Below are positions 1,996 to 64,000 of a stretch of 64,000 nt of DNA, one piece after another. Within the stretch, counting starts at the first letter, position 1. Every line of letters starts with the position of its first letter. Source of the stretch: Podarcis vaucheri. Taxonomy: Eukaryota. The notes below the pieces were generated by a model. That model did not search any database, was not told where the DNA came from, and saw only the letters and a list, made by a program, of their open reading frames with translations. The stretch is from the NCBI GenBank assembly GCA_965113315.1, contig OZ220367.1, one strand, 5' to 3'. A program made the translations under genes and the position numbers.

Positions 1996-4056
1996 TGTTC
2001 CTGCTCCAGATTTTTAACCGTTCGTATGAAAGAAATTGTTTTGAATCCTTTTTATTGTTGATTTTATTACTGTGAAATTGCTTTGAGATATTCTGTGGGA
2101 ATATCTAAGGAAGAGCCTTCGGATCTATGGGTTATTTCTTATGAAACTGTTTTCTGCACCAACTAGAATGACATTCTGCTGCACCTTTTCTTCTGTGTAC
2201 ACAGGGTCTGTATTTCCTGCAAGGGCAGCTATTAGATAATGTTTATTATTGGATAGGTGTCAAAGGGGGCATTTTACCCAGACAGGATTGGTTACCTTGC
2301 TAATAACATTTCAGTTCAGCTCTCTTCTCTGATGATAACGATGCAGCAATTTGGATTGTGTTAGGTTCCCGCCACCACCAACGCTAAACAGTCAATACAG
2401 AAAAAGTCAATACAAATTTGACACAAGGCGAATGAGTCAAATGGAATAGGCAAGCGGCCTAAATACATGCTTTCCGCTGCATCCCAAGCAGAGAAATTAA
2501 TGAAACTTGCAGAAAGCCGTTTCCAAGATTTATTCCTAAAGGCAAAGAATTATTTTCCCTATGATGCAGTGTTATATTGAAACTGCTCTCAAACTGCAAG
2601 GAAGGATTCCCTCATCTGCTCAGAGCCTAAATGCAGCCAAAACATGATGCAAATTAAGAACTGGATTCTTAATAGAATGGAAGTACTTGTAGAGATCCCT
2701 GGCCCAAATCCTAAATGAATTTTAATGGAGGAATTCTAAATTAAAATGCTGTGATGCAAGTGCATTCAAAGACTTCTGACTCCTAGATATGGAAGGGGCA
2801 GAAATCGGCAGAAATCAGTAGTCTTTGAACAGGCCTGCACAATATTTTAATTTAGAATTCTTAAAAAATATGGACCAGGGATCGCCTCAATTGCTTTCTG
2901 CTTATGAAGCACCCAGTTATCTTAAGACATTTGTGATGTATAAAAATCATATGTTTATAAAGAAATAAACCTTTCATAGAGCCATTTTAAAAAATTATAT
3001 GTGTATACACCTCAATTTCTGTAATGGCCTAAAATAGAGCTTTGGAGCCTGAAGCAGTCTCACCTCTGTGTTCAAGTATAGATATCATAAAATTTGATGG
3101 CTTGGGTAGCAATTAATTTTGAGTTCATTCTCTGCTTCACTGAGGTATACAGAAGCAGACCTGATGTGAACTTAGTGCCTTTCGACTGAGCTAGGAATTA
3201 GCCGCCAAAGGGCTCTGCGACTGTAATGAATGTTTGGCACTAACAGCCTGTAACGGAAGTAAGAGCAAGGTCCACAGATGAACAATGGAAAGTCACTAAA
3301 CAGAATATGCACTCCTTTGATATGTGCACTTCTGCTAATTCAGGAACTGTAATTGGCTTTTGCAGATCAATGCTCTGTTTGCTATAAATTGTAAACACTT
3401 CAAGGAGGACATGGTTCTCTAGCAGAAGAACAATAATATCAGTGCATTCTGTAGTGCTAAACATGCTTAATATTTTTTTCCCTGAAAACAAAATTATATA
3501 ATAGACCTTAGGTGACAGTCCACAGCAATCCCCTCCCCAGGTTTGCCACCTAATATGCAGACTGTGAAGCTGGGGAGCTATTTTAGTGTTTTATGGGGGG
3601 AGGGTGAAAGGATGAACAGGGGTGAAGATTGCTCCAGCATCATTCACTCTCTCCACTAATGCTGAACTCTGTTCCCCCTCCCACCCCAACTGTCTTTCAT
3701 TCATCACCAGACTGAAAATGTCCCTCCCTTCTTCTTCCCCCACTCCACTGGGTTCCATCCTAACACCGAATGCAAGGGAGAGTAGTGGTGGAAAGCATTT
3801 ATTCCCACTCATGTCCTCACTCTGACTTGGCATCAGGACAAACACCATCGGAAGTGAGGGTTAGAAGAAATGCTTCTTGTCTATTGAGGAAGGAATCTAA
3901 AGAAGAACATATGACAGGCAGCAGCGGCAGTGAGAACTGAACACGCAGTGGCAGCAGTGAAAAATGTGAATGGTGAAAACATCCTCCCCAGTGAACATCC
4001 TCCCCTTCCACTCTCATTCAGGCAAAAATAATTCATTTAAGAACTTGTACTTCAGG

Positions 4057-4107
4057 AAGAAGAAGAAGAAGAAGAAGAAGAAGAAGAAGAAGAAGAAGAA
4101 GAAGAAG
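4057..4107 (+). repeat. (AAG)n microsatellite
   Basis: Read directly from the sequence. Confidence 0.95.
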
Positions 4108-4139
4108 ACGACCTTGGCTCACTTCATGGAGTCAAGAAA

Positions 4140-4570
4140 GCTGTTTCTGAACATGTTGTAGAGGGAACAATGGGGCAGATGGGGCTTGTCAACCTGGGAA
4201 GGTAGCCCATCTAGGAGAACTCTGGTCCTAAATCTCTCCTGCCTTGCAAAATATATTTGGGAGAAGAAAAGCTAAGTAAGCCCTCCATAAAGTGGAGTCC
4301 CTAATATGGTTGGATGGCATTTTGTATGTCTCCTTCCAGCAACTCCTGCAGCCAAGTCAGTGCCCAACATATTGCCCTGCTTTTCTTTTGACCATATTAC
4401 TGAGCCAGGGGGGAGGTCTTGTCGTCTGGGCAGCCCAGGACCCCCATACACACTGCCCTGGGGAGTTCACTTCAGTGCTGCTAATGCAGTGGTTTGACTT
4501 CACCCCTAGAGGTGCACTCCATTGTTTCTTGAGACAGAAAGATGCTAACAACAAAGCTGTGGAAACAAAG
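4140..4570 (+). mobile_element. possible RTE-clade LINE 5'/UTR-derived fragment
   Basis: The motif GGGAAGGTAGCCCATCTAGGAGAA resembles RTE-family leaders. Recalled similarity only; boundaries approximate. Confidence 0.3.
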
Positions 4571-4738
4571 CCCTACCTGCTTCAAAAGTTGTATCTAACC
4601 ATCTGGGTCTGGATGAACAATGTGTGTGTGATTTGAATCAAGATGAGCTTCTCCATCCATGTCAGCAACATGTCTGGAGCCTTTCATCCATACACAGATC
4701 TCTCTTGCTAGACTGTGGCATCTGTGGATAATATTATA

Positions 4739-4970
4739 TAGGTAGCTCTCAGTTTAAGAGGGGATTACATTTCAGGGATAGCGTGTAAAACCAAAATAAA
4801 GTATAATCAAAACACATTGCGTTCAGTAGCTGGTGGGACTGCCAGATTCTATTTTCCTGGATACCCACCACCTTTTTGCTCCCTTTTAATTGTTATTGTT
4901 CTTTTTATTTTTGCCAGTTGTGTATAGCTTAATGCACACAAGTTAAATGAGCTTAAGTTGTGAGTTACCT
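4739..4970. mobile_element. degenerate Tc1/mariner-type MITE
   Basis: Imperfect terminal inverted repeats (TIRs) TAGGTAGCTC...GAGTTACCTG flanked by TA. Confidence 0.45.
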
Positions 4971-7900
4971 GTAGTTAAAACACTTGGTGGCACTTATTTG
5001 TATCTGGGTTAAGGTGGCCAAGTTTCACCTGCTAAAACGCCAGCAACTTGTCCGTTTTTGGATCTTGTCATCCTAAATCTTGGTAGAGATGAGAGTTTGA
5101 TGTTGCTGCTCTGATCTTCTCTTAACAGGCACAATAAAGTTCTTTTCTAGCTTCCTGACCAGTATGTTCTCCAAAATTTCCATGACAAGATGAGACTGTA
5201 TATTTGTATAAAATTACACAATCACTCTCCTCATACTCAAAGTATAATTAGATGCTCTTAGCGTCCGTTTGCCCACCTACTCATGAAAGATTGCAAACTT
5301 ATACTTCCTTTCTTTTTCTTTTTCTTTTTCTAAATACCCAGCACAATTAAGCGTCTGTGTAACTAATGAGTTGTTTAGTGTAGACTCGTTTACAACAAAT
5401 TCCAGAAAGTAAGTGTTTGATATGCTAATGCATCTGTTAATGGAAGACATCTATACAAAAGTTATTTGCTTGATGACAGAGAATATTTAAGCAACCTATT
5501 GTGGTACTAAGAACATCTGTTAAGGAAAGCATTTATTAAAGGCATGCAATGCTTTTGTACTGCTAAATACAAAAAGAAAAAGCTACCAGAGAGTCTTTTT
5601 TATTAATTACTACCCACAAAATGGATTCTCTCTAATCTCCCATAACATCATTTTGATAAACCTGTCAATGAAAGTTGAAAGTGTCAAGAATGCATTTTCA
5701 GAAGCAGGCAGCACCTGTAATCATGTGAAGGTTCCAAACAACCATAATTTATCCGCTGCCCTTTGTATAGCTATTTCTGCAACCGGCATGGTGAGAAAAG
5801 TGTCGAGATGCCTCCTAAAACACAGGGCCTAAACCACATGGTGATGCGCAATGGGGTTCATTAACATTTCATTTCAAGATAGTATGGTGTACATACATAC
5901 AAAGCACATGCAGCTGGATCAGGTCAAAGAGCAAGTTGACTGGAGTAGCAGCTAGCAAATATATTCTGCTATTTAAGTCAAAGGCAAACCATGGGAAAGA
6001 AGACAGATCCTCATCTAAATAAGCATAACAAATTAATTTTCTGATTAGGATTAGGATAATGTACTATGCAAGTGTCCTGGAAAAACTGGGACATCCCATT
6101 TCCCCCCGTAAGAGCATATAGGCCATTTTGGATGCTATGATCTTGCAAAATTTTGTGTCAAGATCTCATCCTCCCCAAAAAACTTCTTTTGGGATTCCAT
6201 GATCTCATGTAGGTCACTTGACTTGTGCAGGAGCATGGCCGGGAAAACATGTGCCTCAGTATGAAAATTGAACATGTTGAAGGGTATGGGATAACAACTC
6301 AGGTGCCTGATGAGATAAAACCACATCCCTTGGTCTTTAATGCATTGGGTGGTGTTAGCTGATTGATGGATGGATGTGGTTTTTTGAAGGGGAAAGGGTC
6401 TTGTAGGCCAAACTGTAATTCCTGGTGAGTCAAGATTGGCCCATGGGCCAAGAGCTTCCCCACCCCCGATTTGATCCGTGAATCCTTATGTCACAATAAG
6501 GTTTTAGTCCTATACTCACTTACCTGGAATTAAGTCCAATCGAAGTAAATATGACGTCTGTGTGTGCATAATCTTTTAGGGACCACAAGTCTCTTTCTTG
6601 TTTTTGCTGCTACATACTTAAAATGGCTACCGCTGACTACCTCTATCGAAGCAGAAATGGATGGGTGATCCATCCTGTGGACTTTGTCCAAAAAGATGAC
6701 TCTTTCTTGGGAATGGAGGAAATACTAATTTATTGATATGTAGGACAGAAAGTCTTTGTAGCAATATTAGACAGCTACAGAAGACCTGCAGCCTTCACAT
6801 GTCAAGAGGAAAATTGATACTCAGAGAGAGAATTGGCAGACTTACAGATCTTCTTCACTATTAATATTTTAAGTCACCATATGGGTGAGTTCCTTGTTTC
6901 CAAGATTTCAAATGAAATAATAAGCAATCTTTCAGAATATGAAATGCCTGTCATTAGGAACGAGGAATAGAGTTTGAGCAGCAAATTTTGTTTTGTCTTT
7001 GCAATGTTTTTAGGTGCCTTTATCCACTCTGTAGTCCAGTGGATAAAATAAGAGTTAAAAACTATCATCATCATCATGTGTTTCTGCAAGAGTGAGACAC
7101 TGCTAATCCTAAAGGGGGAAAATAAATCCTATGATTAGGAAAAATGGTTTCCACAAGGGCTAAAGAATATGATGTGTGGCCTAGAAGCTTGACATCTGTT
7201 ACAAACTGAAATGCTTTCTTTTTTTAAAAAAATAATAATAATCATGTAGTTTGTTGCTATTTCACATTTGGGCAATCTATACTGACAGTATGCAGTATAC
7301 TTCTCACTAACTGCGCAGATTTTCTTTACAAAATTACAATATATGCATTATCCTGTCTGCATTCAATTTGCTTGTACTGCATTCATTAATCCTGTACTAA
7401 GTCAGAAAAGTGTCAGAAATAAATAATAATAATAGTACTGTGGCCATCATATTTAGCTATTCTGAGCCAAAGGGAGCCTGCTACATAAGAAAATAAATCA
7501 TGGATAAGAGCAATTGTGTAACATTAATAATGGTTATTTACCTAAAATAAATATATGCATTCTGTAAATGATTAATTCAGTCTCTGTCCACTTGTGATGC
7601 TACATGAGAACAAAGTGCTTTTCTGAGAGGAATTTGGAATATAGAGCTTTTGAAGAACTGCAGTAAGAGAGTCTGTTTAATAAGTCAAGGCACAAATGCA
7701 TTGTGCAGCTCTGATTATTTAAGTGGTTTTAAGTAGATTCGGGTTTTTCCACATAATTATGCCCAATGGCAGAACAGTAACATCAGTAGCAATGAAAAGC
7801 ATATGTGAAACCAATTTTGTGTAAGGTAGAAATGCCCATGGATTATACATGCCACTGATTGGAATGATTGTTTCATTCAGCTGTTCTATGAAACATTCTA

Positions 7901-47362: not shown

Positions 47363-47717
47363 AGGTAAAGGTAAAGGGACCCCTGACCATTAGGTCCAGT
47401 CGTGGCCGACTCTGGGGTTGTGGCACTCATCTCGCTTTATTGGCTGAAGGAGCCAGCATACAGCTTCTGGGTCATGTGGCCAGCATGACTAAGCCGTTTC
47501 TGGTGAACCAGAGCAGCACACGGAAACGCCATTTACCTTCCCGCCGGAGCGGTACCTATTTATCTACTTGCACTTTGACGTGCTTTCGAACTGCTAGGTT
47601 GGCAGGAGCAGGGACCGAGCAACGGGAGCTCACCCCGTTGCGGGGATTCGAACCGCCGACCTTCTGATCGGCAAGCCCTAGGCTCTGTGGTTTAGACCAC
47701 AGCACCACCTGCGTCCC
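47363..47717 (-). mobile_element. full-length Sauria SINE
   Basis: On the minus strand it begins GGGACGCAGGTGGTGCTGTGG, has B box GGTTCGAATCC, and ends with the (ACCTTT)n tail. Confidence 0.94.
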
Positions 47718-53542: not shown

Positions 53543-54177
53543 TACAGGTTTCTTTGTTTATTTCAAAGCAATACCACTTCTTCATACTCCCTCAACCAGT
53601 AAAATAAATTCAGTGACTCTGCCAACTTAGGCCACCTCAAATCCTGCTTCTTCCAAAATATCACCACATTATGAGAGGCATTCAGGAACCTTACTAATAT
53701 TACACAAATGGTGCTAAGTAGCGAGTTTCAACCTGGAATGGACAAATCTCTTAATTTTGGTTCTACAAATTTCTTATTTTTCCTTTCCCTAGAAATTCAT
53801 CAGCATTACAGAATTTCTCCTAACAAACATATTTTTGTATGCAATTTTCACTAATATGCACATTTTGTAAGCAATTTTCTGTAATATAATGCAATTTGTA
53901 CATTAGGTTTACTATATATTTTATGCATGCATGTACCCAAGTACACATGCTTCTGTACACATTACTTGGCTGGAGAACTGCATTGCAAAATTCAGAGAAG
54001 TACGTTTGTTTGTTGGTTGGTTGGTTGGTTGGTTGGTAAGGCTATATTTTAGTTCACATATTGTTTTTTTAAAAGTGTGATTTTGGCAAATTCATGTTTA
54101 AATGCAAACTGAATCAACTTTCCCTCCCATCCCTAGCCCCTATCAAGTTTTTTTGTTTTTACCTATTTAGTATCAGA

Positions 54178-54487
54178 GTGGGACGCGGGTGGCGCTGTGG
54201 GTTAAAGCCTCAGCGCCTAGGGCTTGCCGATCGAAAGGTCGGCAGTTCGAATCCCCGTGGCGGGGTGCGCTCCCGTTGCTCGGTCCCAGCGCCTGCCAGC
54301 GGGAAGGTAAACGGCGTTCCGTGTGCTGCGCTGGCTCGCCAGATGCAGCTTTGTCACGCTGGCCACGTGACCCGGAAGTGTCTCCGGACAGCGCTGGCCC
54401 CCGGCCAATAGATGTGAGATGGGCGCACAAACCCCAGAGTCTGTCAAGACTGGCCCGTTCGGGCAGGGGTACCTTTACCTTTACCTT
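54178..54487 (+). mobile_element. Sauria SINE, divergent CpG-rich subfamily with internal deletion
   Basis: GGGACGCGGGTGGCGCTGTGG head, B box, (ACCTTT)n tail, and 14-bp TSD TATTTAGTATCAGA (54164-54177 / 54488-54501). Lacks the TATTTATCTACTTGCAC block. Confidence 0.92.
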
Positions 54488-55532
54488 TATTTAGTATCAG
54501 AAGCTTTGAACCCAATTCTATGGTATTAAGAAGGAAAATAACTTCACGTTTCTATTTCCGCCATTGCTTGTGTAAGCACAATACAGTCAGAACCCAGAAC
54601 TCATTTTTGTGTTCTGCATTTAAATGTTCATGGCATAAACCTCATGACAACATAGTGAGTTCACACGATCACTCTTTCGAAACGCTGACCTCTAAACAAG
54701 ATTTCCTGAAGTTGTAACTTACCCTTTTCTAACCACAATTCACTTATGAACTATTCCCCTTAAAAAAAGGACTTATGAATATGATCTTACTGTGAGTGGA
54801 ATAAGAAATGCTTTTGGCTGCTCCAAACACTAAAATAAAGTTAATCTGACCTTTTAAAAAGAGCCCTCTCCATTTTAACCAGCAGAATTGCTTTACATTT
54901 TGTCTTTACTGAAACAATCAGAGGAGAAATCTAATTTGAGTTTGAATAGATGAGCTGTCACACTCTAAATGTGCATACACAGTACCTTCACTGACATTAT
55001 GTCAATTGTATTTTTCTTCTTTTGAATACAAAAAAGGAGATAGCCCCAGTGCTTAAAATAACAAGTGAGAAACAAAGGCTCCTTTTCGTTAACCACCTAT
55101 AAGGACCTGAAAATACCTTGTTAGAAGGAACAAAGGCAACATTGCCTCTGTGTAGTAGCTAAAGCTCCAGCCCTTTCTGTCTGGCCAGGAATCAGGTATA
55201 AAGAGCCAGTTAAGAAACCCATGGGAAGTGTGAAAAAGGCAGAGCCAAAGTCTTCTTTCCTAGCTTCAAGCCATGTGAACTGTTCAGAATCAGAGCAATC
55301 TCAGCATGACTCCTGTCGCCACGCTATTGCATTGCTAGGAAATAATACAAGTGTGGTGCTTGGAGCTTTTGAAAGCCATCGGGATTGAGAAATCCTAGAA
55401 AGTTATTCTGTAAAAATATCACACACTGGGGATAAAGTAATATTCAAAATGTCTTTATGTATTTCTTTTTTAAAAACTATATGTGTCCTTTGATAATAAT
55501 ATCAGGGTGTGTTTTGAATAATTTTCTATATA

Positions 55533-55746
55533 GCGTGTTCTCATAAAAGAGAGAGCACGTGTTGCGGATGGGGCCGAACAAAACCCCCAGTTAGTGACCA
55601 GGCCATTGATGGCAATGGGCTGGAGTAGATTGGAAGAAGTTGTTACTGGGGCAAAATTGATGTTGCCAATTTAGGGGTGGGGTCAGACCCCTTATATAAG
55701 CAGGGTCCACAGCTTTCTCTTTCTCTTTCGCTGTGGACATCGGATC
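55533..55746 (+). repeat. Ngaro repeat A1 (214 bp)
   Basis: Identical by eye to 61936-62149. Confidence 0.95.
55629..55740 (+). promoter_or_regulatory. putative Pol II promoter in A1
   Basis: ATTGG at 55629, CCAAT at 55666, GGGGTGGGG at 55674 and TATATAAG at 55693-55700, in canonical spacing. Confidence 0.65.
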
Positions 55747-56440
55747 ACATGGAGCACTTGGACTGTCTGGAGGACAGTGATGCAAACTTCTCATTGGTTA
55801 CATTTCTTTATTTCCCCCTTCTTTTAATCCTCTTTAGTCCCTTAAATAATTTAATTCCCCCTTTTCCTGTTCAATTTCCCACCCCACCCCTTACCCTGCC
55901 CTGTGGGAAGATTCTCCCTGTATCTGTGGCTTGCCTTTCTTTCGCAAAAAGGTTTCCCCCATTTCTCCTGTTGTAAATTGTGGGGCTAGTCAGGGCTGTT
56001 CCCAGCTTAGCTGGAATCACTTTCGTTTATAGCACCCCGAAGGTTGGCTTTATTTGAGTGTGTGCAGCGCTGTTGGCCAAATTTTAATCTAGCCTTGGGC
56101 GGGAGCACTATTTTGAGTTCCTTTAATATTGCTATGAGACTAAGATTCTCAAGAGCAGAGGCATGGAGGCCTATTCGGCCTGCGCATAACTTCCGAGCCT
56201 AAGTATGCTACAGGTAGCAGTTAATTGTTAAGTCTCTGACCTCTCTATAAGAATGTACCTGCTTGCAGGCTCAGTTGCCGCTAATGTATATCTGAGGCAG
56301 ACAGAGGGCGGCAGAGGCTCTCTGTGCCTCCAATGACTATGAGCACTCCGTATATGCTCTTGAACTATGCTGTTTCTGAACAAGTTTATTTTCTTTAAGT
56401 TTGTTTTGCCCTGATAGTGGCGACTGCCATTTTAGAGGCG

Positions 56441-56515
56441 AGCCATTGTGGTTTAGTGGCTAAAGTGTAGGACTAGGACCTGGGAGACAGGGTTCATATC
56501 CCCCTCTTAGCCATT
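56441..56515 (+). mobile_element. old tRNA-type SINE head inside the Ngaro interior
   Basis: TGTGGTTTAGTGGCTAAAGTGTAGGACTAGGACCTGGGAGACAGGGTTCATATCCC shows degenerate A and B boxes. Confidence 0.55.
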
Positions 56516-57292
56516 GTTATAACAAAACAAAACAAACTGCTCCTTTTGGGCTATTCTGTTGCTGGGTAGTTCGGCCCATTTGTGATAAAAGAACTTTGGG
56601 TTTCTTGAAGGGGTGCTTCCCTCTAAAAGGGCAAGCAGGGGTGCCTGGACAAGCTGTGGGCTGCCTCAACTCTGCTATTTCACTGGAAACATTTATGCCT
56701 GGCCTAGCAGGTGATCCAAGGGCTTTGCCCTAGAATTCGATGGCCTGGAAGCATTTCCGGCCTGAATAGTGTCCCCATGTGGTCCACGAAGCATTGGTTT
56801 CACCAGTTCCTTACATTGTTTAGTTTTTGCGGACTATGACTGGGCTTTTGCAAATGCCTCAAGAGCTTGCCTCTCCTGCAGGGGATGACTTGTGGACGCC
56901 CCAGCTGTCTTCTTCCAGAAGGAAGCATCTTCGAAGGCTGCAATCCAGGAGGAGGGCAAAGAGGAGCAGGGATCATGATTCAGACATCACCTTGGACCTC
57001 TACAGGGGTCAGGGTGAGGCTGTCCTGGGTCTTTAGGGATCGTCCTGGATAGCTCAGCTGGTCAGCGCATAGTGCCGGTAATGCCTAGGTTGCAGGATTG
57101 GTCCCTATATGGGACAGCTGCATGCTCCCCCATTGCTCTACCTGGACACTTAGGTCCAGTCTCGAGGGCCTTTTGGTGGTTCCCTCACTGCGAGGGATGT
57201 AACAGGCGCCACGTTTGCAATATGCAAGCGGGAGAAAGCACCTTTGTGTGCCCGCACTGCAGTTTGCTCTGTGTGTTGCAGGGCTCAGCGCT

Positions 57293-57940
57293 GCACGGGC
57301 TGCATTTGCATTGCATTGCGTGAGAGATTTGCATTTGCATTGCACGGAGGTTGTGTGCATTGCACAGAGGGTGTGTGTGCATTGCACAGAGGGTGTGTGT
57401 GCATTGCACAGAATGTGTGTGTATTGCATAGAGTGTGTGTGCATTGCACGGAGGGTGTAGTGGCATTGCACAGAGTGTGTGTGTGTTTTTTGTGTTGTTG
57501 TTGTTTTTTGCATTGCACAGAGAGTGCATTGCACAGAGTGTGTAGTTGCATTGCATGGAGGGTAGTTGCATCGCACAGTGTGCGTTTTTGCATTGAACGG
57601 AGTGTGTAGTTGCATTGAACGGAGTGTGTAGTTGCATTGCATGAAGTGTGTAGTTGCATTGCACGGAGTGTGTAGTTGCATTGCATGAAGTGTGTAGTTG
57701 CATTGCATGGAGTGTGTAGTTGCATTGCACAGAGTGTGTAGTAGCATTGCATGGAGGGTAGTTGCATTGCATGGAGTTGCAATGCGTTTTTGCATTGCAC
57801 GAAGTGCGTTTTTGCATTGCACTGAGTGTGTAGTTGCATTGAACGGAGCGTGTAGCTGCATCGCACGGAGTATAGTTGCATTGCTTGGTTTGTGTGAGCA
57901 CTGCACGGAGTGTGTTTTTTGCATTGCACAGAGTGTGTGT
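57293..57940 (+). repeat. ~22-bp minisatellite (GCATTGCACRGAGTGTGTAGTT)n
   Basis: Roughly 30 degenerate tandem units anchored on TGCATTGCA. Confidence 0.93.
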
Positions 57941-57967
57941 CTGAAAAGGAAGCTGGCTCGGCAGCAG

Positions 57968-58060
57968 TTTTGTCGGGACTTTTTTAGCGGTTCTGGCCAG
58001 CGTCGGCCCTGTAAATTTACGTATTATGATGGCAGCACAAGATGCCCCCTGCCCAAGCGG
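57968..58060 (+). pseudogene. degenerate Ngaro gag C-terminal Cys/His finger
   Basis: FCRDFFSGSGQRRPCKFTY..., compare CWxFNxGxCxxxxCKFxH. Confidence 0.55.
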
Positions 58061-58099
58061 GGCTGGAAGCTGGCAAGCAATAGCTCAATACCTTTTGCC

Positions 58100-58935
58100 C
58101 ATATTCCATTTTATTTAGGGATCCAGTTGGATATCGTTGCTAAAACATACCACTTGCCTATGGAGAAGCTGTCTGCCTTGAAGGAAGTTATTTTGTAATA
58201 CTTCCTCTGTAGCAAGTGATGCTTCATCAGATCTGATCTTGCTGGGTCACTTAATTAATCTTGCATGCAGAGTGGTTGCCCCAGGCCGCCCCTTCCCTTC
58301 CCACTAGGCCAGGCTGCCTGGGGCCTGAGGTCCCCTTACCTTTCTCATGCAATGGTTGCAATTCCTAAATGTTGAGGTCCCCTTACCTCTCTCATGCAAT
58401 GGGATCTCATGCAATGGTTGCAATTCCTATATGTATGCAATAGTAGTTGGCCATGGCAGGATACTTGCACAGGGATTTTTCAGGTTCATGCTGATGCTGC
58501 TGGATCTTTGCCCTTTGGGTTTTTTTTTTTTATTTATTTATTTCAGGGGCTGCTGGTGTGCAAAGCTATGGCCTCAAGCCCGGTATGGTGAGGCAATCAT
58601 GTGACCTAACTTTTGAGTTTTCCCCATTGTAGTAGCAGTTCACATGTGGCCCGAGGAGTTCAGTGACCATCGGATCTGCTTTTGGTCTGATAACCAGGTA
58701 GTGGTGAGCGTCTTGGCTAAACAGTTCTCACGCTCCAGCAGAGTCTCCGCCCCTCCGCTCACGCTTTTGAGCTGCACCGCTTAAGGTTTAATATTGTGCT
58801 TTCTGCTCTCCTGATTACGGGATCCTCTAATGATGTCTCTGATACTCTATCCCATTTTCAGATTGAGCGCTTCAGATCCTGGGCTCCAGACACTCAGCTA
58901 TTGCCAGACTTTTCCAGACCACCTGTGGCATTTTG
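58100..58935 (+). pseudogene. RT C-terminus + RNase H (frameshifted; RT catalytic core missing)
   Basis: YLGIQLD..YHLPMEKL, LGHL..ACRVVAPGRPF, WLQFL, VHADAAGS, EFFPIVVAVHMW, FWSDNQVVV, NDVSDTLSHFQ..FR. Many stops and frameshifts. Confidence 0.88.
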
Positions 58936-58959
58936 ACAACAATTAGTAATTACAGAGAG

Positions 58960-59820
58960 CAGCAGCTTCCATTTCCCCTTCTGCTTTTAGCTCTTATGGG
59001 AAGGCCTGGATGGATTTCTTAGCCTTAAGCTGGCAGTCCTCGGCCATTCAGATGAACTGGCCCCCATCCTCTGAGCAGATCCTGCAGTATTTGGTCCACC
59101 TGCCGCAGATTGGGCGGGCTGTTATAACTATAAGAATTCAGTCCGCTGCAATGTCTGTTATACTGAAGATTTATTTTTCAGAGACCCTTGCATAAAGTTT
59201 GTAATGCGCAGGGCCTTGGAAGGTTGGAATAGGCTCCAACCTCATAGGACAGTGGGCAGGAAGTCGGTCAATTTTATCTATGCAGGATCTGCAACAAGTT
59301 AAAACTTGTCTGCTGGTAAAAGATCAAGGCGAGACTCCTTTCAGTATTCCATTGCATTTTGGGCACTGAGGGTTGGGGAAATGGTTGTTGGAGCCAGCAC
59401 AGGGCTGAGAGTCTGGAGGCTTATTGCTTCAGGACTTTTCCTTATTTGCTTTGGAGCTTGTCATTAGAGTTGGGAACTCTAAAACAGACTTAGTGGGCAG
59501 GAGTGCCACAATCAGGCTTCCCATTACAGATGAGGAGGGCCCTTGCACGGTTATGGATACCAGAAAAATTTGGCTTTTCATTCCCCTGGGGGCTGGCCCA
59601 CTCCTAGTGCATGAAAATGGGTTCCCATTAGCCAGGCATTAATGTGCTTACATCGTGCACCAGTTATCACGGCCTGCGGCTTGCCTACCGCTGAACACTC
59701 CTCATTCCTTACGATTAGGTGCTGCTGCAAAGGCTGCACACTGGGGGCCTGTCAGTAGACAGGATTTTGAATACGGGTCATTGGAAGTCTGACGCTGACG
59801 AGGGTTATATCAGGAAGTGT
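58960..59820 (+). pseudogene. tyrosine recombinase (frameshifted)
   Basis: SYGKAWMDF, WPPS, ALEGW, LRVGE (59366), SKTD (59478), PLLVHENG.PL, HSLRLGAA (59703) and GHWKSDA..GYIR (Tyr at 59806) give the R-HxxR-Y signature. Confidence 0.9.
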
Positions 59821-59869
59821 CACAATGATGTCTGTGCTGATGCTTGTCTGTTATTTCCTTTTCTCATAG

Positions 59870-60180
59870 GAGCAGCTGTGCACATTTGGGCCACAGCATT
59901 GTAGACTGGGCTGGCAAGCGCGCTGACAAGTCTGGACTGGGGCGCCATCTCAGTCTTCCTGCCCATGTGAACATATGCTGGATGTCCAGATGGGGAATGC
60001 TTTGGGAGGAGGTCCTTCCTTTGGTGCGGTCGAGTGTGACCTGTGCAGGTCCTCCCGCAGTGCTGGTGGTACAGCTAGGCGGGAATGATTTGCCGTCTTC
60101 CTCCAGCATAAGTTTGCATTCCTGCATGCAAGAGGGCTTGGATTGAGTTGATGGCAGCTCTCCCTGGACTCAAAATAATT
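59870..60180 (+). pseudogene. degenerate, 3'-truncated SGNH hydrolase (copy 1)
   Basis: VHIW/GHSIVDWA..W..RWGMLW..PPAVLVVQLGGND. It is frameshifted, has a stop, and lacks the DxxH block. Confidence 0.85.
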
Positions 60181-60359
60181 TAAGGCATTTGGTTCAAGGT
60201 GGTCTGGAGGGGGGTTGGAGCACCTGTCCCCTCCAATGCGCAAAGATATTCCATTAAAGGAAACCAAGGATTTGCCATGCTTTGTCAACCCCCTTTCGAG
60301 GGGTAGGGCCACGCAAGAGTCCCTGGGAGCATTTGGGGTGAGCTTGAGTCTGATCCTGG

Positions 60360-60900
60360 TTCATTGCTCCCCCACGCTGTTTACTTGTTCTGACGATATG
60401 GTGGGGCCCAGTCGTCAGTGCTGCTCTGCTGAGGTCAGATGCAGCTAGTCGGGAACCAATGCCTAGACAAACTACCACCGAGCAGGCCAGAAAGCATGTT
60501 AATATGGCGGTGGAAAATAAAATAAAATAAATAAAGTAAATAAAATAAAATAAAATAACATATAAAATAAAATAGGTCCTTGCTTTAGGTGGTTCTGTGA
60601 TATTGCACCCTGCTATTTTCTTCAAGACTGTTCCCCTCTTTGGGGCAGATGGGGGGTGCATCTTTCCCCTATGGGGAACGACACCTGGCGGGATGCGATT
60701 GCCTTGGGATTCATTGCTCCCCCACAATGTTGCTGGTACTGACAATATGGTGGGGCCCAGTCGTCAGTGCTGCCCTGCTGAGGTCAGGTGCAGCTAGTCA
60801 GGAACCAGTGCCTAGACAAACTACCACCAAAGAGGCCGGTAAGCATGTTAATAAGGAAGTGTAAAATAATAAAATAAAATAAAATAAAGAATAATAAAAT
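60360..60900 (+). repeat. diverged direct repeat pair (60360-~60560 and 60710-60900), remnant B-type ends of the older element
   Basis: Both copies read TTCATTGCTCCCCCAC...ATATGGTGGGGCCCAGTCGTCAGTGCTGC...GCCTAGACAAACTACCACC...(AAAAT)n, with multiple substitutions. Confidence 0.85.
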
Positions 60901-60907
60901 TCTTCAG

Positions 60908-61482
60908 GTCGGGCCGCTATCCGTATCTGGATAGTAGGGCACAGTATTGTGCATTGGGCTGCGGACAGAGCTCGTCAGTCTGGACTGGGCGATGGCCTGG
61001 GCTTTCCGCAGCACGTACAGTTGTCCTGGATCTCCAGAAGGGGGATGCTGTGGAGGGAATTCTTACCTCTCATGCAACGGCGTGTCCTACGGTTTGGCCC
61101 TCCTTCGGCGATCATGGTGCAGCTCGGGGAGAACGATATGGTTTCCTCTTCCTGCTATGGGCTGCGTGCTGCCATATTACAGGACCTTGGAGAGCTGGCG
61201 GCACTGGTGCCGTCAACTAAGCTAATTTGGTCACAGCTATTGCAACGCCACATTTGGCGAGGTAGTCCTTGCCCAGCCGCCACCGAACGTGTAAGGAAGC
61301 GGATTAATTCTGCGGCAAGCAAGCTGGTGGTGAATCTGGGCGGGTCTGTGATCCCTCACCCTCTGATTTCATTCAAGGCGATTGAATTTTATAGGGATGA
61401 CGGGGTTCATCTCTCGCCAGTTGGGAATGATGTGTGGTTGGATGCTATGGTGTCCAGGCTGAGGGTGTGGCTTAATTTGTGA
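60908..61482 (+). CDS. intact SGNH/GDSL-family hydrolase of the Ngaro element (probably a spliced exon)
   Basis: Open frame 60898-61482. Block I IWIVGHS, block II G (RRGM), block III QLGEND and block V DGVH are all present. There is no ATG before the catalytic Ser, and the frame is preceded by TTCTTCAG. Confidence 0.85.
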
Positions 61483-61511
61483 GTGGTTGGCGGCGAGCGT
61501 AAGGGCTCGAA

Positions 61512-61932
61512 TGGCGGTTAGGCATTGGTTAAAATTGGTTGGTGGAGGGGTATGGATTGGCTGTGCCTGCCCCTCCAATGCTGCTGCAGACGGGTATTCC
61601 GTTAAAGGAATTCTGAAGCTTACCATCCCCCTCGTCCAAACCCTGACGGCAGGGTGCGGGCCGTGTAAGCTTCAAGGAACATGCGCGGAGCAGTGAGAGT
61701 CTGTGACGCAGCTCCATCTGACTCTGACCATGTTTCCTCCGGGACTGGCTACGGAGTCAGTGCTGTCCCCCCAAGGCGGGGGGGGACAGGTAGTCATAAC
61801 CAATGCCTAAGCAACCACTCTCAATTTGTATAAAAATAAAGTTGTGGCCAAAATTATGCCAAAAACCTTAAACAAAAATTACGTGTGATGTCTGAGTTAT
61901 TGGGGTAGGGGTTTTGGGGGACCTCAGCACGC
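61512..61932 (+). repeat. Ngaro repeat B1 (421 bp)
   Basis: Identical by eye to 62318-62738 (offset 806). Contains AATAAA at ~61835. Confidence 0.95.
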
Positions 61933-61935
61933 AAA

Positions 61936-62149
61936 GCGTGTTCTCATAAAAGAGAGAGCACGTGTTGCGGATGGGGCCGAACAAAACCCCCAGTTAGTGA
62001 CCAGGCCATTGATGGCAATGGGCTGGAGTAGATTGGAAGAAGTTGTTACTGGGGCAAAATTGATGTTGCCAATTTAGGGGTGGGGTCAGACCCCTTATAT
62101 AAGCAGGGTCCACAGCTTTCTCTTTCTCTTTCGCTGTGGACATCGGATC
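61936..62149 (+). repeat. Ngaro repeat A2
   Basis: Identical by eye to A1, including the CCAAT, GC-box and TATA motifs. Confidence 0.95.
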
Positions 62150-62317
62150 TCCCGCCCGCCCTCCCTTGATTTGGGCTTGCGCTTTGACCTTGCTCTGCCT
62201 GTCATGGGGTCGTTCGCCTTGGTGCGGGGGCCCAGTAGGAATTTGTCCAATTGGCTGATTAGTGCGTGCCTTTTGGGTTTTGCCTACTGCTTAGCAAATC
62301 GTCACAACTTGTAAGGT

Positions 62318-62738
62318 TGGCGGTTAGGCATTGGTTAAAATTGGTTGGTGGAGGGGTATGGATTGGCTGTGCCTGCCCCTCCAATGCTGCTGCAGACGGG
62401 TATTCCGTTAAAGGAATTCTGAAGCTTACCATCCCCCTCGTCCAAACCCTGACGGCAGGGTGCGGGCCGTGTAAGCTTCAAGGAACATGCGCGGAGCAGT
62501 GAGAGTCTGTGACGCAGCTCCATCTGACTCTGACCATGTTTCCTCCGGGACTGGCTACGGAGTCAGTGCTGTCCCCCCAAGGCGGGGGGGGACAGGTAGT
62601 CATAACCAATGCCTAAGCAACCACTCTCAATTTGTATAAAAATAAAGTTGTGGCCAAAATTATGCCAAAAACCTTAAACAAAAATTACGTGTGATGTCTG
62701 AGTTATTGGGGTAGGGGTTTTGGGGGACCTCAGCACGC
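62318..62738 (+). repeat. Ngaro repeat B2
   Basis: Identical by eye to B1. AATAAA at 62641 followed by a GT-rich tract suggests a poly(A) site. Confidence 0.95.
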
Positions 62739-64000
62739 AAATAGCAGACAGATGAAGAATCAGAAGTTCTTTCTTTTTATTTTTTCTTCCTTTCTCTCTT
62801 CTCTCGTTTTTTCTCCCTTTTGGTTTCTGTTTTTATTTAGTTTTATTATTTTTGATAAAAAGATATTGGACATTAACCTTATTACATTTTCTTTCAAACT
62901 TTAATAATAGTAGATGTGCATGAGACAAAAGGATGTCTGGAATTTGATTGGCAGAGTTGTTGCTATTTGCAGTAAGCAGCCCTTCCAGGGGGCAAATAAT
63001 AGCTGTGGGGAGGACCAGGAGTGCTTCTCTGATCCAGACTGAAGCACATTCCAGTTGGAAGGTCCATACAGCTTCTTTTCCTTCAAAACAAAAGCAGCCA
63101 GCTTTGACAAAGCTTCTAAAATAAGTGTGACTAACGTAACACTTTGTTTGGATCTAATCAATCCCAATTCTGTGTTCTAAATGTGATTGTGATGTTTTGC
63201 TAGGGAGTCAAGACGAAACCAGAACTGATGTGTATTCACCGATGTTGTTAATGTGTTATGCTTGACAAAATTTTCATAAGGAGTTGGGTTTCTGAGCATA
63301 TTTTTGCCCTTGCTGGTTTATATTTCTTCCAATGGCCAAAAATAAATCTGTACTGTTTCATCCTTTACAAAAATGTGACATGCACGTTAAAAAGTGCTAA
63401 GTAAAACTGACGAATCTTGCATCTTCTTTTCTAGGTTAAGCTAGATAATTTTGCAAAGCCAGATTTTATGCTCTTTGAACATTGAGTCCATTGAGTAACT
63501 CAGCTTCATGTCTCAATTATTTAATTCCAAGTCCACGGAGAGATTCTTAAAATAACGGCTTCAGAGGCCCAATGCCAAGAATTGGGATGGTAGCAGAGCA
63601 CATTATGGACTGCGCGAAAAGCAAATGTTGACAGTTAAAAGCGCGTCAACTTCTATGCTTTTAAAGCTGTGTGAAGTGGAGAGAAGCAGAATCTTCTGCA
63701 GACAGTAGATTCTACTTTCCCCAACACACTGAAAATAATACTCGCTGGCCAATTAAATGCTGGAAAAGTGAGGCTAAAAGAGATGAGGCTAGATTTGACC
63801 TAGTTAGTTTCATTTAAGTTCTCAGAGCGATAAAAGGAGCAGGAAAGGAAGGAAATCAGCAAAGCACACCAGATAGTTTCCTAAATTACGAGAGGCAAAA
63901 CACTCCTGAGGAATACTCAAGAACATAAAAATGATTATCTCTTTTCTTAACTCTCTGTGAAATCAACGACTCCACATCTGTTTGCTATAATATTTAATGA

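Follow-up and report, generated by a model that had tools for sequence, protein, structure and literature searches.

A mid-gag splice donor and two downstream acceptors predict Gag fusions of the tyrosine recombinase and the SGNH hydrolase in Ngaro-type retrotransposons

The window, i.e. the whole 64-kb stretch of DNA analysed here, harbors a non-autonomous Ngaro-type tyrosine-recombinase (YR) retrotransposon at positions 55532-62741, with all of its features on the plus strand. As is characteristic of Ngaro-like elements, and as found in most intact loci too, its split direct repeats are arranged in the order A1 ... B1 A2 B2: A1 (55532-55746) is 100% identical to A2 (61935-62149), and the 424-bp B1 (61512-61935, with AATAAA at 61835) is 100% identical to B2 (62318-62741), which forms the element's 3′ end. 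The A repeat contains a TATA-like box, at 55693 in A1, together with a short perfect inverted repeat (55693-55746 and 62096-62149), and on these motifs A2 may act as a second promoter. The ORF order gag-like, RT/RNase H, YR is present, as decayed remnants in the window and as Pfam RVT_1 and Phage_integrase matches in relatives (in the one pol scanned, RVT_1 alone was matched at E <= 0.05, with no match to a methyltransferase domain behind RT/RH and none to RNase H either), and a hydrolase ORF follows the YR, as in amphibian-type Ngaro elements. This is a YR element with split repeats and not a non-LTR element with an endonuclease-RT ORF2, as a LINE would be.

The remnants comprise the middle of gag (56803-57033; weak tblastn matches to intact gag, E 0.001-0.004), RT/RNase H (58112-58943; tblastn 35-37%, E 1e-23 to 1e-28), a YR splice acceptor (58822-58861, AG at 58860-61) at the position of the invariant acceptor of intact relatives, and the YR itself, in pieces (58950-59817; tblastn 39-40%, E 1e-46 to 1e-48). 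They are followed by a first hydrolase copy, a pseudogene (59870-60146) whose C-terminal piece is displaced near 60411-60703, by two ~190-bp repeat copies of a decayed family ending in (AAAAT)n (60360-60899; direct repeat, 87%), which are also present in precursor loci that have no second hydrolase copy, and by a second, whole hydrolase exon (60908-61482). The decayed gag region further holds a tandem array of 20-22 bp units with a TGCATTGCA core (57300-57950), and outside the element lie SINE copies in opposite orientation (54177-54490 and 47363-47698), presumably Sauria SINEs.

The first-pass annotation had called the two hydrolase copies diverged paralogs; the relationships of the surrounding DNA show that they did not arise by duplication in place. 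The middle of the window element belongs to a decayed, distant family with ~66-71% identity to full-length relatives, whereas copy 2 and everything from there to the element end is 70-94% identical to them; in comparisons with 15 full-length relatives (L036-L050, some with frame breaks), this identity sets in at 60905-60906 in 13 of 15, and at 60917 and 60920 in the remaining two. When copy 2 was used as query, at least 33 matches over its full length, at 98-100%, came up among the 150 candidates scored out of 2305, and 30 of 30 near-identical matches that were fetched share the window layout across 1.5 kb upstream. Comparison of six further loci (L051-L054, L058 and L060) with window 60360-60907 indicates that the decayed family has acquired differing 3′ ends from active subfamilies at least three times, at about the same A-rich run; in L058 and L060 the decayed family carries the unspliced YR end, spacer and hydrolase of another subfamily.

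Copy 2 has the motifs of an SGNH hydrolase (GHS at 60937, G at 61042, GEND at 61126, DGVH at 61399), and all 25 sequences aligned keep the catalytic-block residues S11, G44, N74, D163 and H166. Pfam matches stayed under the cut-off and the best PDB sequence match, to 4C1B, was weak (E 0.065). The structural model (pLDDT 94) has an SGNH alpha/beta fold that Foldseek matches to GDSL/SGNH esterases at a TM of about 0.7-0.75, and as modelled the hydrolase is an SGNH esterase in fold, globular and unlike the membrane fusion glycoprotein expected of an env.

For the expression of the hydrolase, 35 full-length loci were examined, of which 34 could be scored; the remaining one (L073) was dropped because it has no GHS motif, despite showing the same acceptor. 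A YAG (30 TAG, 4 CAG) occupies one fixed position in all 34, in phase 1 and 34-42 nt past the YR stop, and the exon behind it is open for 186-190 codons. Since the loci are related copies (66-98% identity among the first 15), these counts do not represent 35 independent events. The acceptor lies in a non-coding spacer in which the AG and a CTYAY-like motif are kept and the length is free. In 31 of 34 loci the exon has its first Met 45 codons in, past the catalytic Ser, and the frame offset from YR to hydrolase is 0, +1 or +2 in 16, 5 and 13 loci, respectively. An in-frame ATG or a YR read-through in intact relatives, either of which would have spoken against the spliced expression put forward in the first-pass annotation, was looked for and is not the rule in these loci: because the frames vary and the Met lies behind the catalytic Ser, obligatory read-through and an own start can be ruled out. 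The fixed phase of the acceptor means, moreover, that the upstream exon must be coding.

A candidate for that exon came from a scan of the aligned gags, made ahead of any protein search, in which a single GT column was kept in 15 of 15 elements with a positive mean donor score. The site lies 664-688 nt from the ATG, near codon 222, and is in phase 1 in 14 of 15, the exception (L044) having a frame break upstream of it. Scores on the donor matrix are mostly weak (0.8-8.1, often 2.1-2.3). In the full set, the donor G|GT could be located in 34 of 35 loci, the exception being L080; 12 of 12 lineages use GGT for the Gly codon at this site, against a background in which the third base is kept in 3 of 53 invariant four-fold columns. 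The upstream gag exon measures 221-229 codons, and splicing from this donor to the hydrolase acceptor predicts a Gag-hydrolase fusion of 412-414 aa. A donor at the GK-stop at the end of gag was rejected, as no GT is conserved there, and ahead of the gag ATG in L036-L050 the scan showed no leader donor that was ATG-bearing or both conserved and strong.

The same 15 elements show further features around gag. One to three YAGs lie within 8 nt ahead of the gag ATG after a stretch of 58-87% pyrimidines in 15 of 15, suggesting a leader intron of ~1.2-1.6 kb, and a GGTYGTAT-like motif is kept shortly past A1. In the gag/pol overlap, an A-run is followed at the gag end by a G-run of variable length, with the frame differing between copies; a frameshift site and assembly noise are both possible. 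One of the elements (L048) is adjoined by a 316-codon ORF (633-1583, oriented) that resembles an olfactory receptor.

Database proteins were checked after the donor had been predicted. Among named proteins the closest belong to Podarcis and Zootoca, which makes a lacertid lizard the probable host, and RefSeq, UniRef and nr gave 37 longer hydrolase matches, 25 lacertid and 12 newt. Gene models of this kind may be ab initio or homology-driven; with that in mind, 17 of the 25 lacertid models join gag to the hydrolase exactly at the predicted residue, eight of them at a length of 412-414 aa, and five join a host-type exon to the same residue. The other three are joined otherwise, P0007 by read-through of an upstream frame and P0011 and P0025 from the YR. 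An Arg-rich stretch precedes the esterase in the P0001 sequence and in the junction contexts. Of the original proposal, expression from a spliced mRNA finds support in the phase-1 acceptor of the relatives and in the database models, but a separate, env-like protein does not: the analogy to env lacks support, since the first half of gag would provide a coding exon upstream and a fusion would result, the enzyme having no usable Met of its own and gag not being skipped by a mid-gag donor.

Among the database proteins P0017-P0021 and P0057, long host-type proteins of Zootoca and Podarcis (with source names ZNF638-like or SRRM2) end in this hydrolase, and a gecko protein of 3112 aa contains six matched stretches; exonisation or domestication is possible. 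Newt models with different N-termini converge on one hydrolase start, and gecko, caecilian and other frog models have long N-termini ahead of the hydrolase. Two Xenopus laevis isoforms with neighbouring accessions (X1 and X3) have 534 residues in common and then continue into YR or hydrolase, and in isoform X2 the hydrolase is joined after 47 YR residues. A full Xenopus gag bearing the N-terminus shared by the isoforms was absent among five matches.

The YR has an acceptor of its own, scored in 33 loci after two of the 35 had been dropped for broken frames. An invariant pyrimidine tract and CAG in phase 1 were present in 33 of 33. The YR frame opens 7-11 codons upstream of this tract and CAG and has no Met before residue 52, if it has one at all; the SAM-like domain begins near residue 42. 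In L038, taken on the reverse strand of the stored locus, the predicted joins run from the donor after base 3947 to 6327 for the YR and to 7336 for the hydrolase. Across the acceptor, seven consecutive pol codons are invariant, compared with 21 of 291 overall (12 lineages, L037 having been dropped for stops), for which dual coding could be part of the cause. Taken by their position and phase, these sites probably serve a second spliced fusion, of the N-terminal half of Gag with the YR, made from the same donor; among the database matches, no lizard Gag-YR protein was seen.

Against this background the two sites in the window can be read. For copy 1, the AG at 59868-69 and the branch-like TGCTGAT at 59835-41 are located where the first-pass annotation had placed them, and the site (59835-59869) is homologous to the real acceptor but leads out of frame. 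The AG-to-GHS distance is 19 nt in copy 1, compared with 29 nt in L037, an intact element, and 26 nt in L057, an older relative whose acceptor is in frame with GHS; the 19-nt spacing recurs in 45 of 46 pattern-matched locus records, some loci being repeated among them. The claim that both acceptors share a phase therefore applies to the AAVHIW frame of copy 1 and fails for its catalytic GHS frame, which is in phase 2 and meets a stop at 60144-46. By homology the copy-1 site is a genuine acceptor, now dead because it is out of frame with GHS and because the donor has decayed: at the donor position of the window gag, ~56994, the GT is gone, and it is missing in 11 of 11 non-autonomous copies aligned with four intact gags.

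At copy 2, the AG at 60906-07, the in-frame TAA at 60895 and the want of a usable ATG ahead of GHS were all correctly described, the first Met being residue 49 of 194 and past GHS. Upstream, however, lies an (AAAAT)n run and no acceptor-type tract, and the bases at 60900-60907, TTCTTCAG, agree with the end of the gag donor exon at 8 of 8 positions in 6 of 15 intact elements, as opposed to 2-3 nt with the true acceptor in 15 of 15. In six intact elements TTCTTC stands ahead of 6 of 2744 AGs, every time at the donor, and translation of the window across 60908 gives SSG-RAAIRIW, as in model P0001. Because TTCTTCAG matches the gag-exon end and hardly the true acceptor, we read the site as a fossil exon-exon junction, probably retro-copied from spliced RNA through template switching, and not as one of two live env-like acceptors. 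The window element is a hybrid, itself non-autonomous, and there is a good chance that its decayed body acquired the present 3′ end by switching template onto a spliced Gag-hydrolase RNA. Alternatively, for the window only, TTCTTCAG could derive from the decayed precursor and perhaps serve as a new acceptor, given that a CTTCAGGT word stands just behind the same A-rich run in 16 precursor-type loci and that some phase-1 donors of the window stand behind short frames that begin with ATG. This would take several small deletions and a switch, whereas spliced RNA yields the exact junction in one switch, and none of 20 extra loci is intermediate between the two states, so that we consider a precursor origin rather unlikely. 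What speaks against the spliced-RNA reading is that whole spliced retrocopies gave no pattern matches and that there was none in 101 scored of 3577 candidates.

For the full-length group, we consider it quite probable from the conserved sites that a single mid-gag donor, together with acceptors for YR and hydrolase, produces Gag fusions. In the scheme that we propose, unspliced RNA would give full Gag and would also serve as pol message and genome, and one phase-1 donor near gag codon 222 would be used for both spliced forms. Splicing to the acceptor 34-42 nt past the YR stop would yield a protein of 412-414 aa in which the N-terminal half of Gag, with an Arg/Lys-rich and then a Ser-rich end, is followed by the whole SGNH hydrolase; splicing to the acceptor inside the pol end would join the same half to the YR. 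The RNA levels, splicing rates, proteins and functions of this scheme are what we infer from site conservation, phases, open frames, fold and database models. As to function, the most likely role, held with somewhat less than even confidence, is that the shared N-terminal half would carry both enzymes into the particle of Gag and RNA and that the hydrolase would make contact with membranes or lipids, by analogy with what has been proposed for the esterase of ZfL2-1.

Other ways of producing the enzyme fit less well. A non-coding leader could be spliced to the hydrolase acceptor so that the enzyme is made alone, as with env; the YAGs ahead of the gag ATG in 15 of 15 elements leave room for a leader intron, and ORF3s of LTR elements typically come from spliced messages, according to the available part of PMC5408684. 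Yet 31 of 34 hydrolase exons have no Met ahead of the catalytic Ser, and in the other three it stands 1-2 residues before GHS, and with a fixed phase that calls for a coding upstream exon and no suitable leader donor, such a message is very improbable. Coupling of YR and hydrolase on an unspliced message, whether through read-through of the stop, a frameshift or stop-start reinitiation, would suit the 16 of 34 loci with both in the same frame, those in which the YR stop overlaps an ATG, and the two models joining YR to hydrolase. It does not suit the 18 of 34 with other frames or the many YR stops that are TAA without ATG, nor does it account for an AG and CTYAY-like motif that stay while the spacer length is free; read-through and stop-start coupling were rejected on the variation of frames among loci, and we hold this route to be even less probable. 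Least probable of all is that the hydrolase is unexpressed and that coding constraint produced the motifs as a by-product, considering that the acceptor lies in non-coding spacer and the exon behind it is open with S, G, N, D and H invariant. We therefore retain splicing from within gag as the preferred reading.

As in the spliced Gag RNAs of Ty1/Copia elements, splicing would here balance the products of one retroelement RNA, although those RNAs reportedly yield Gag alone and not Gag-enzyme fusions. The closest layout is that of Xenopus DIRS-53_XT and DIRS-54_XT (PMC9210276), which share the A1...B1 A2 B2 repeats and the order gag, RT/RH, YR, hydrolase. As far as the accessible text of that paper goes, these have four overlapping ORFs and a hydrolase of unproven function, and the main text never mentions splicing; the present elements differ from that description in that YR and hydrolase would be alternative last exons fused to a Gag half. 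ORF1p of ZfL2-1, from the L2/CR1/RTEX LINEs (PMC3905857; PDB 4C1B), likewise has a C-terminal SGNH domain after an arginine-rich stretch and, in the portion of the paper available, is said to form particles, but it is encoded in one unspliced ORF, whereas the lizard fusion would arise by splicing, beside full Gag and in a YR element. With retroviral env, LTR-element ORF3 and the bdelloid GDSL ORF3 (PMC5408684, in part) the elements share an additional 3′-terminal ORF whose expression would depend on removing pol by splicing; there the products are separate proteins, while here the upstream exon would be gag and the donor common to the recombinase. The Ngaro hydrolase as such was already known, its function being unproven in the accessible parts of PMC9210276 and PMC6681497. 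A literature search on Ngaro/DIRS hydrolase splicing, overlapping ORFs and splice acceptors found no description of it, and the available portions of PMC9210276, PMC9341512, PMC7192593, PMC5408684, PMC3905857, PMC6681497, PMC8547959, PMC3266345 and PMC4495291 do not describe hydrolase splicing; the novelty is provisional for this reason.

On balance, we lean slightly towards an undescribed Ngaro plan extending from lizards to frogs, in which a Gag-half carrier exon would be spliced to either YR or hydrolase, the integrase would be a Gag-YR protein and host genes would have borrowed the hydrolase acceptor. The finding addresses how YR retrotransposons express overlapping, start-less ORFs and what role the Ngaro hydrolase may have, and it supplies exact junctions and predicted protein forms, on which recombinase and hydrolase should be examined in the form of Gag fusions. 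RefSeq genes named ‘uncharacterized’ or ‘SRRM2-like’ are flagged as likely transposon isoforms. A YR element would, in this way, attain by splicing the ORF1-esterase layout that LINEs encode directly.
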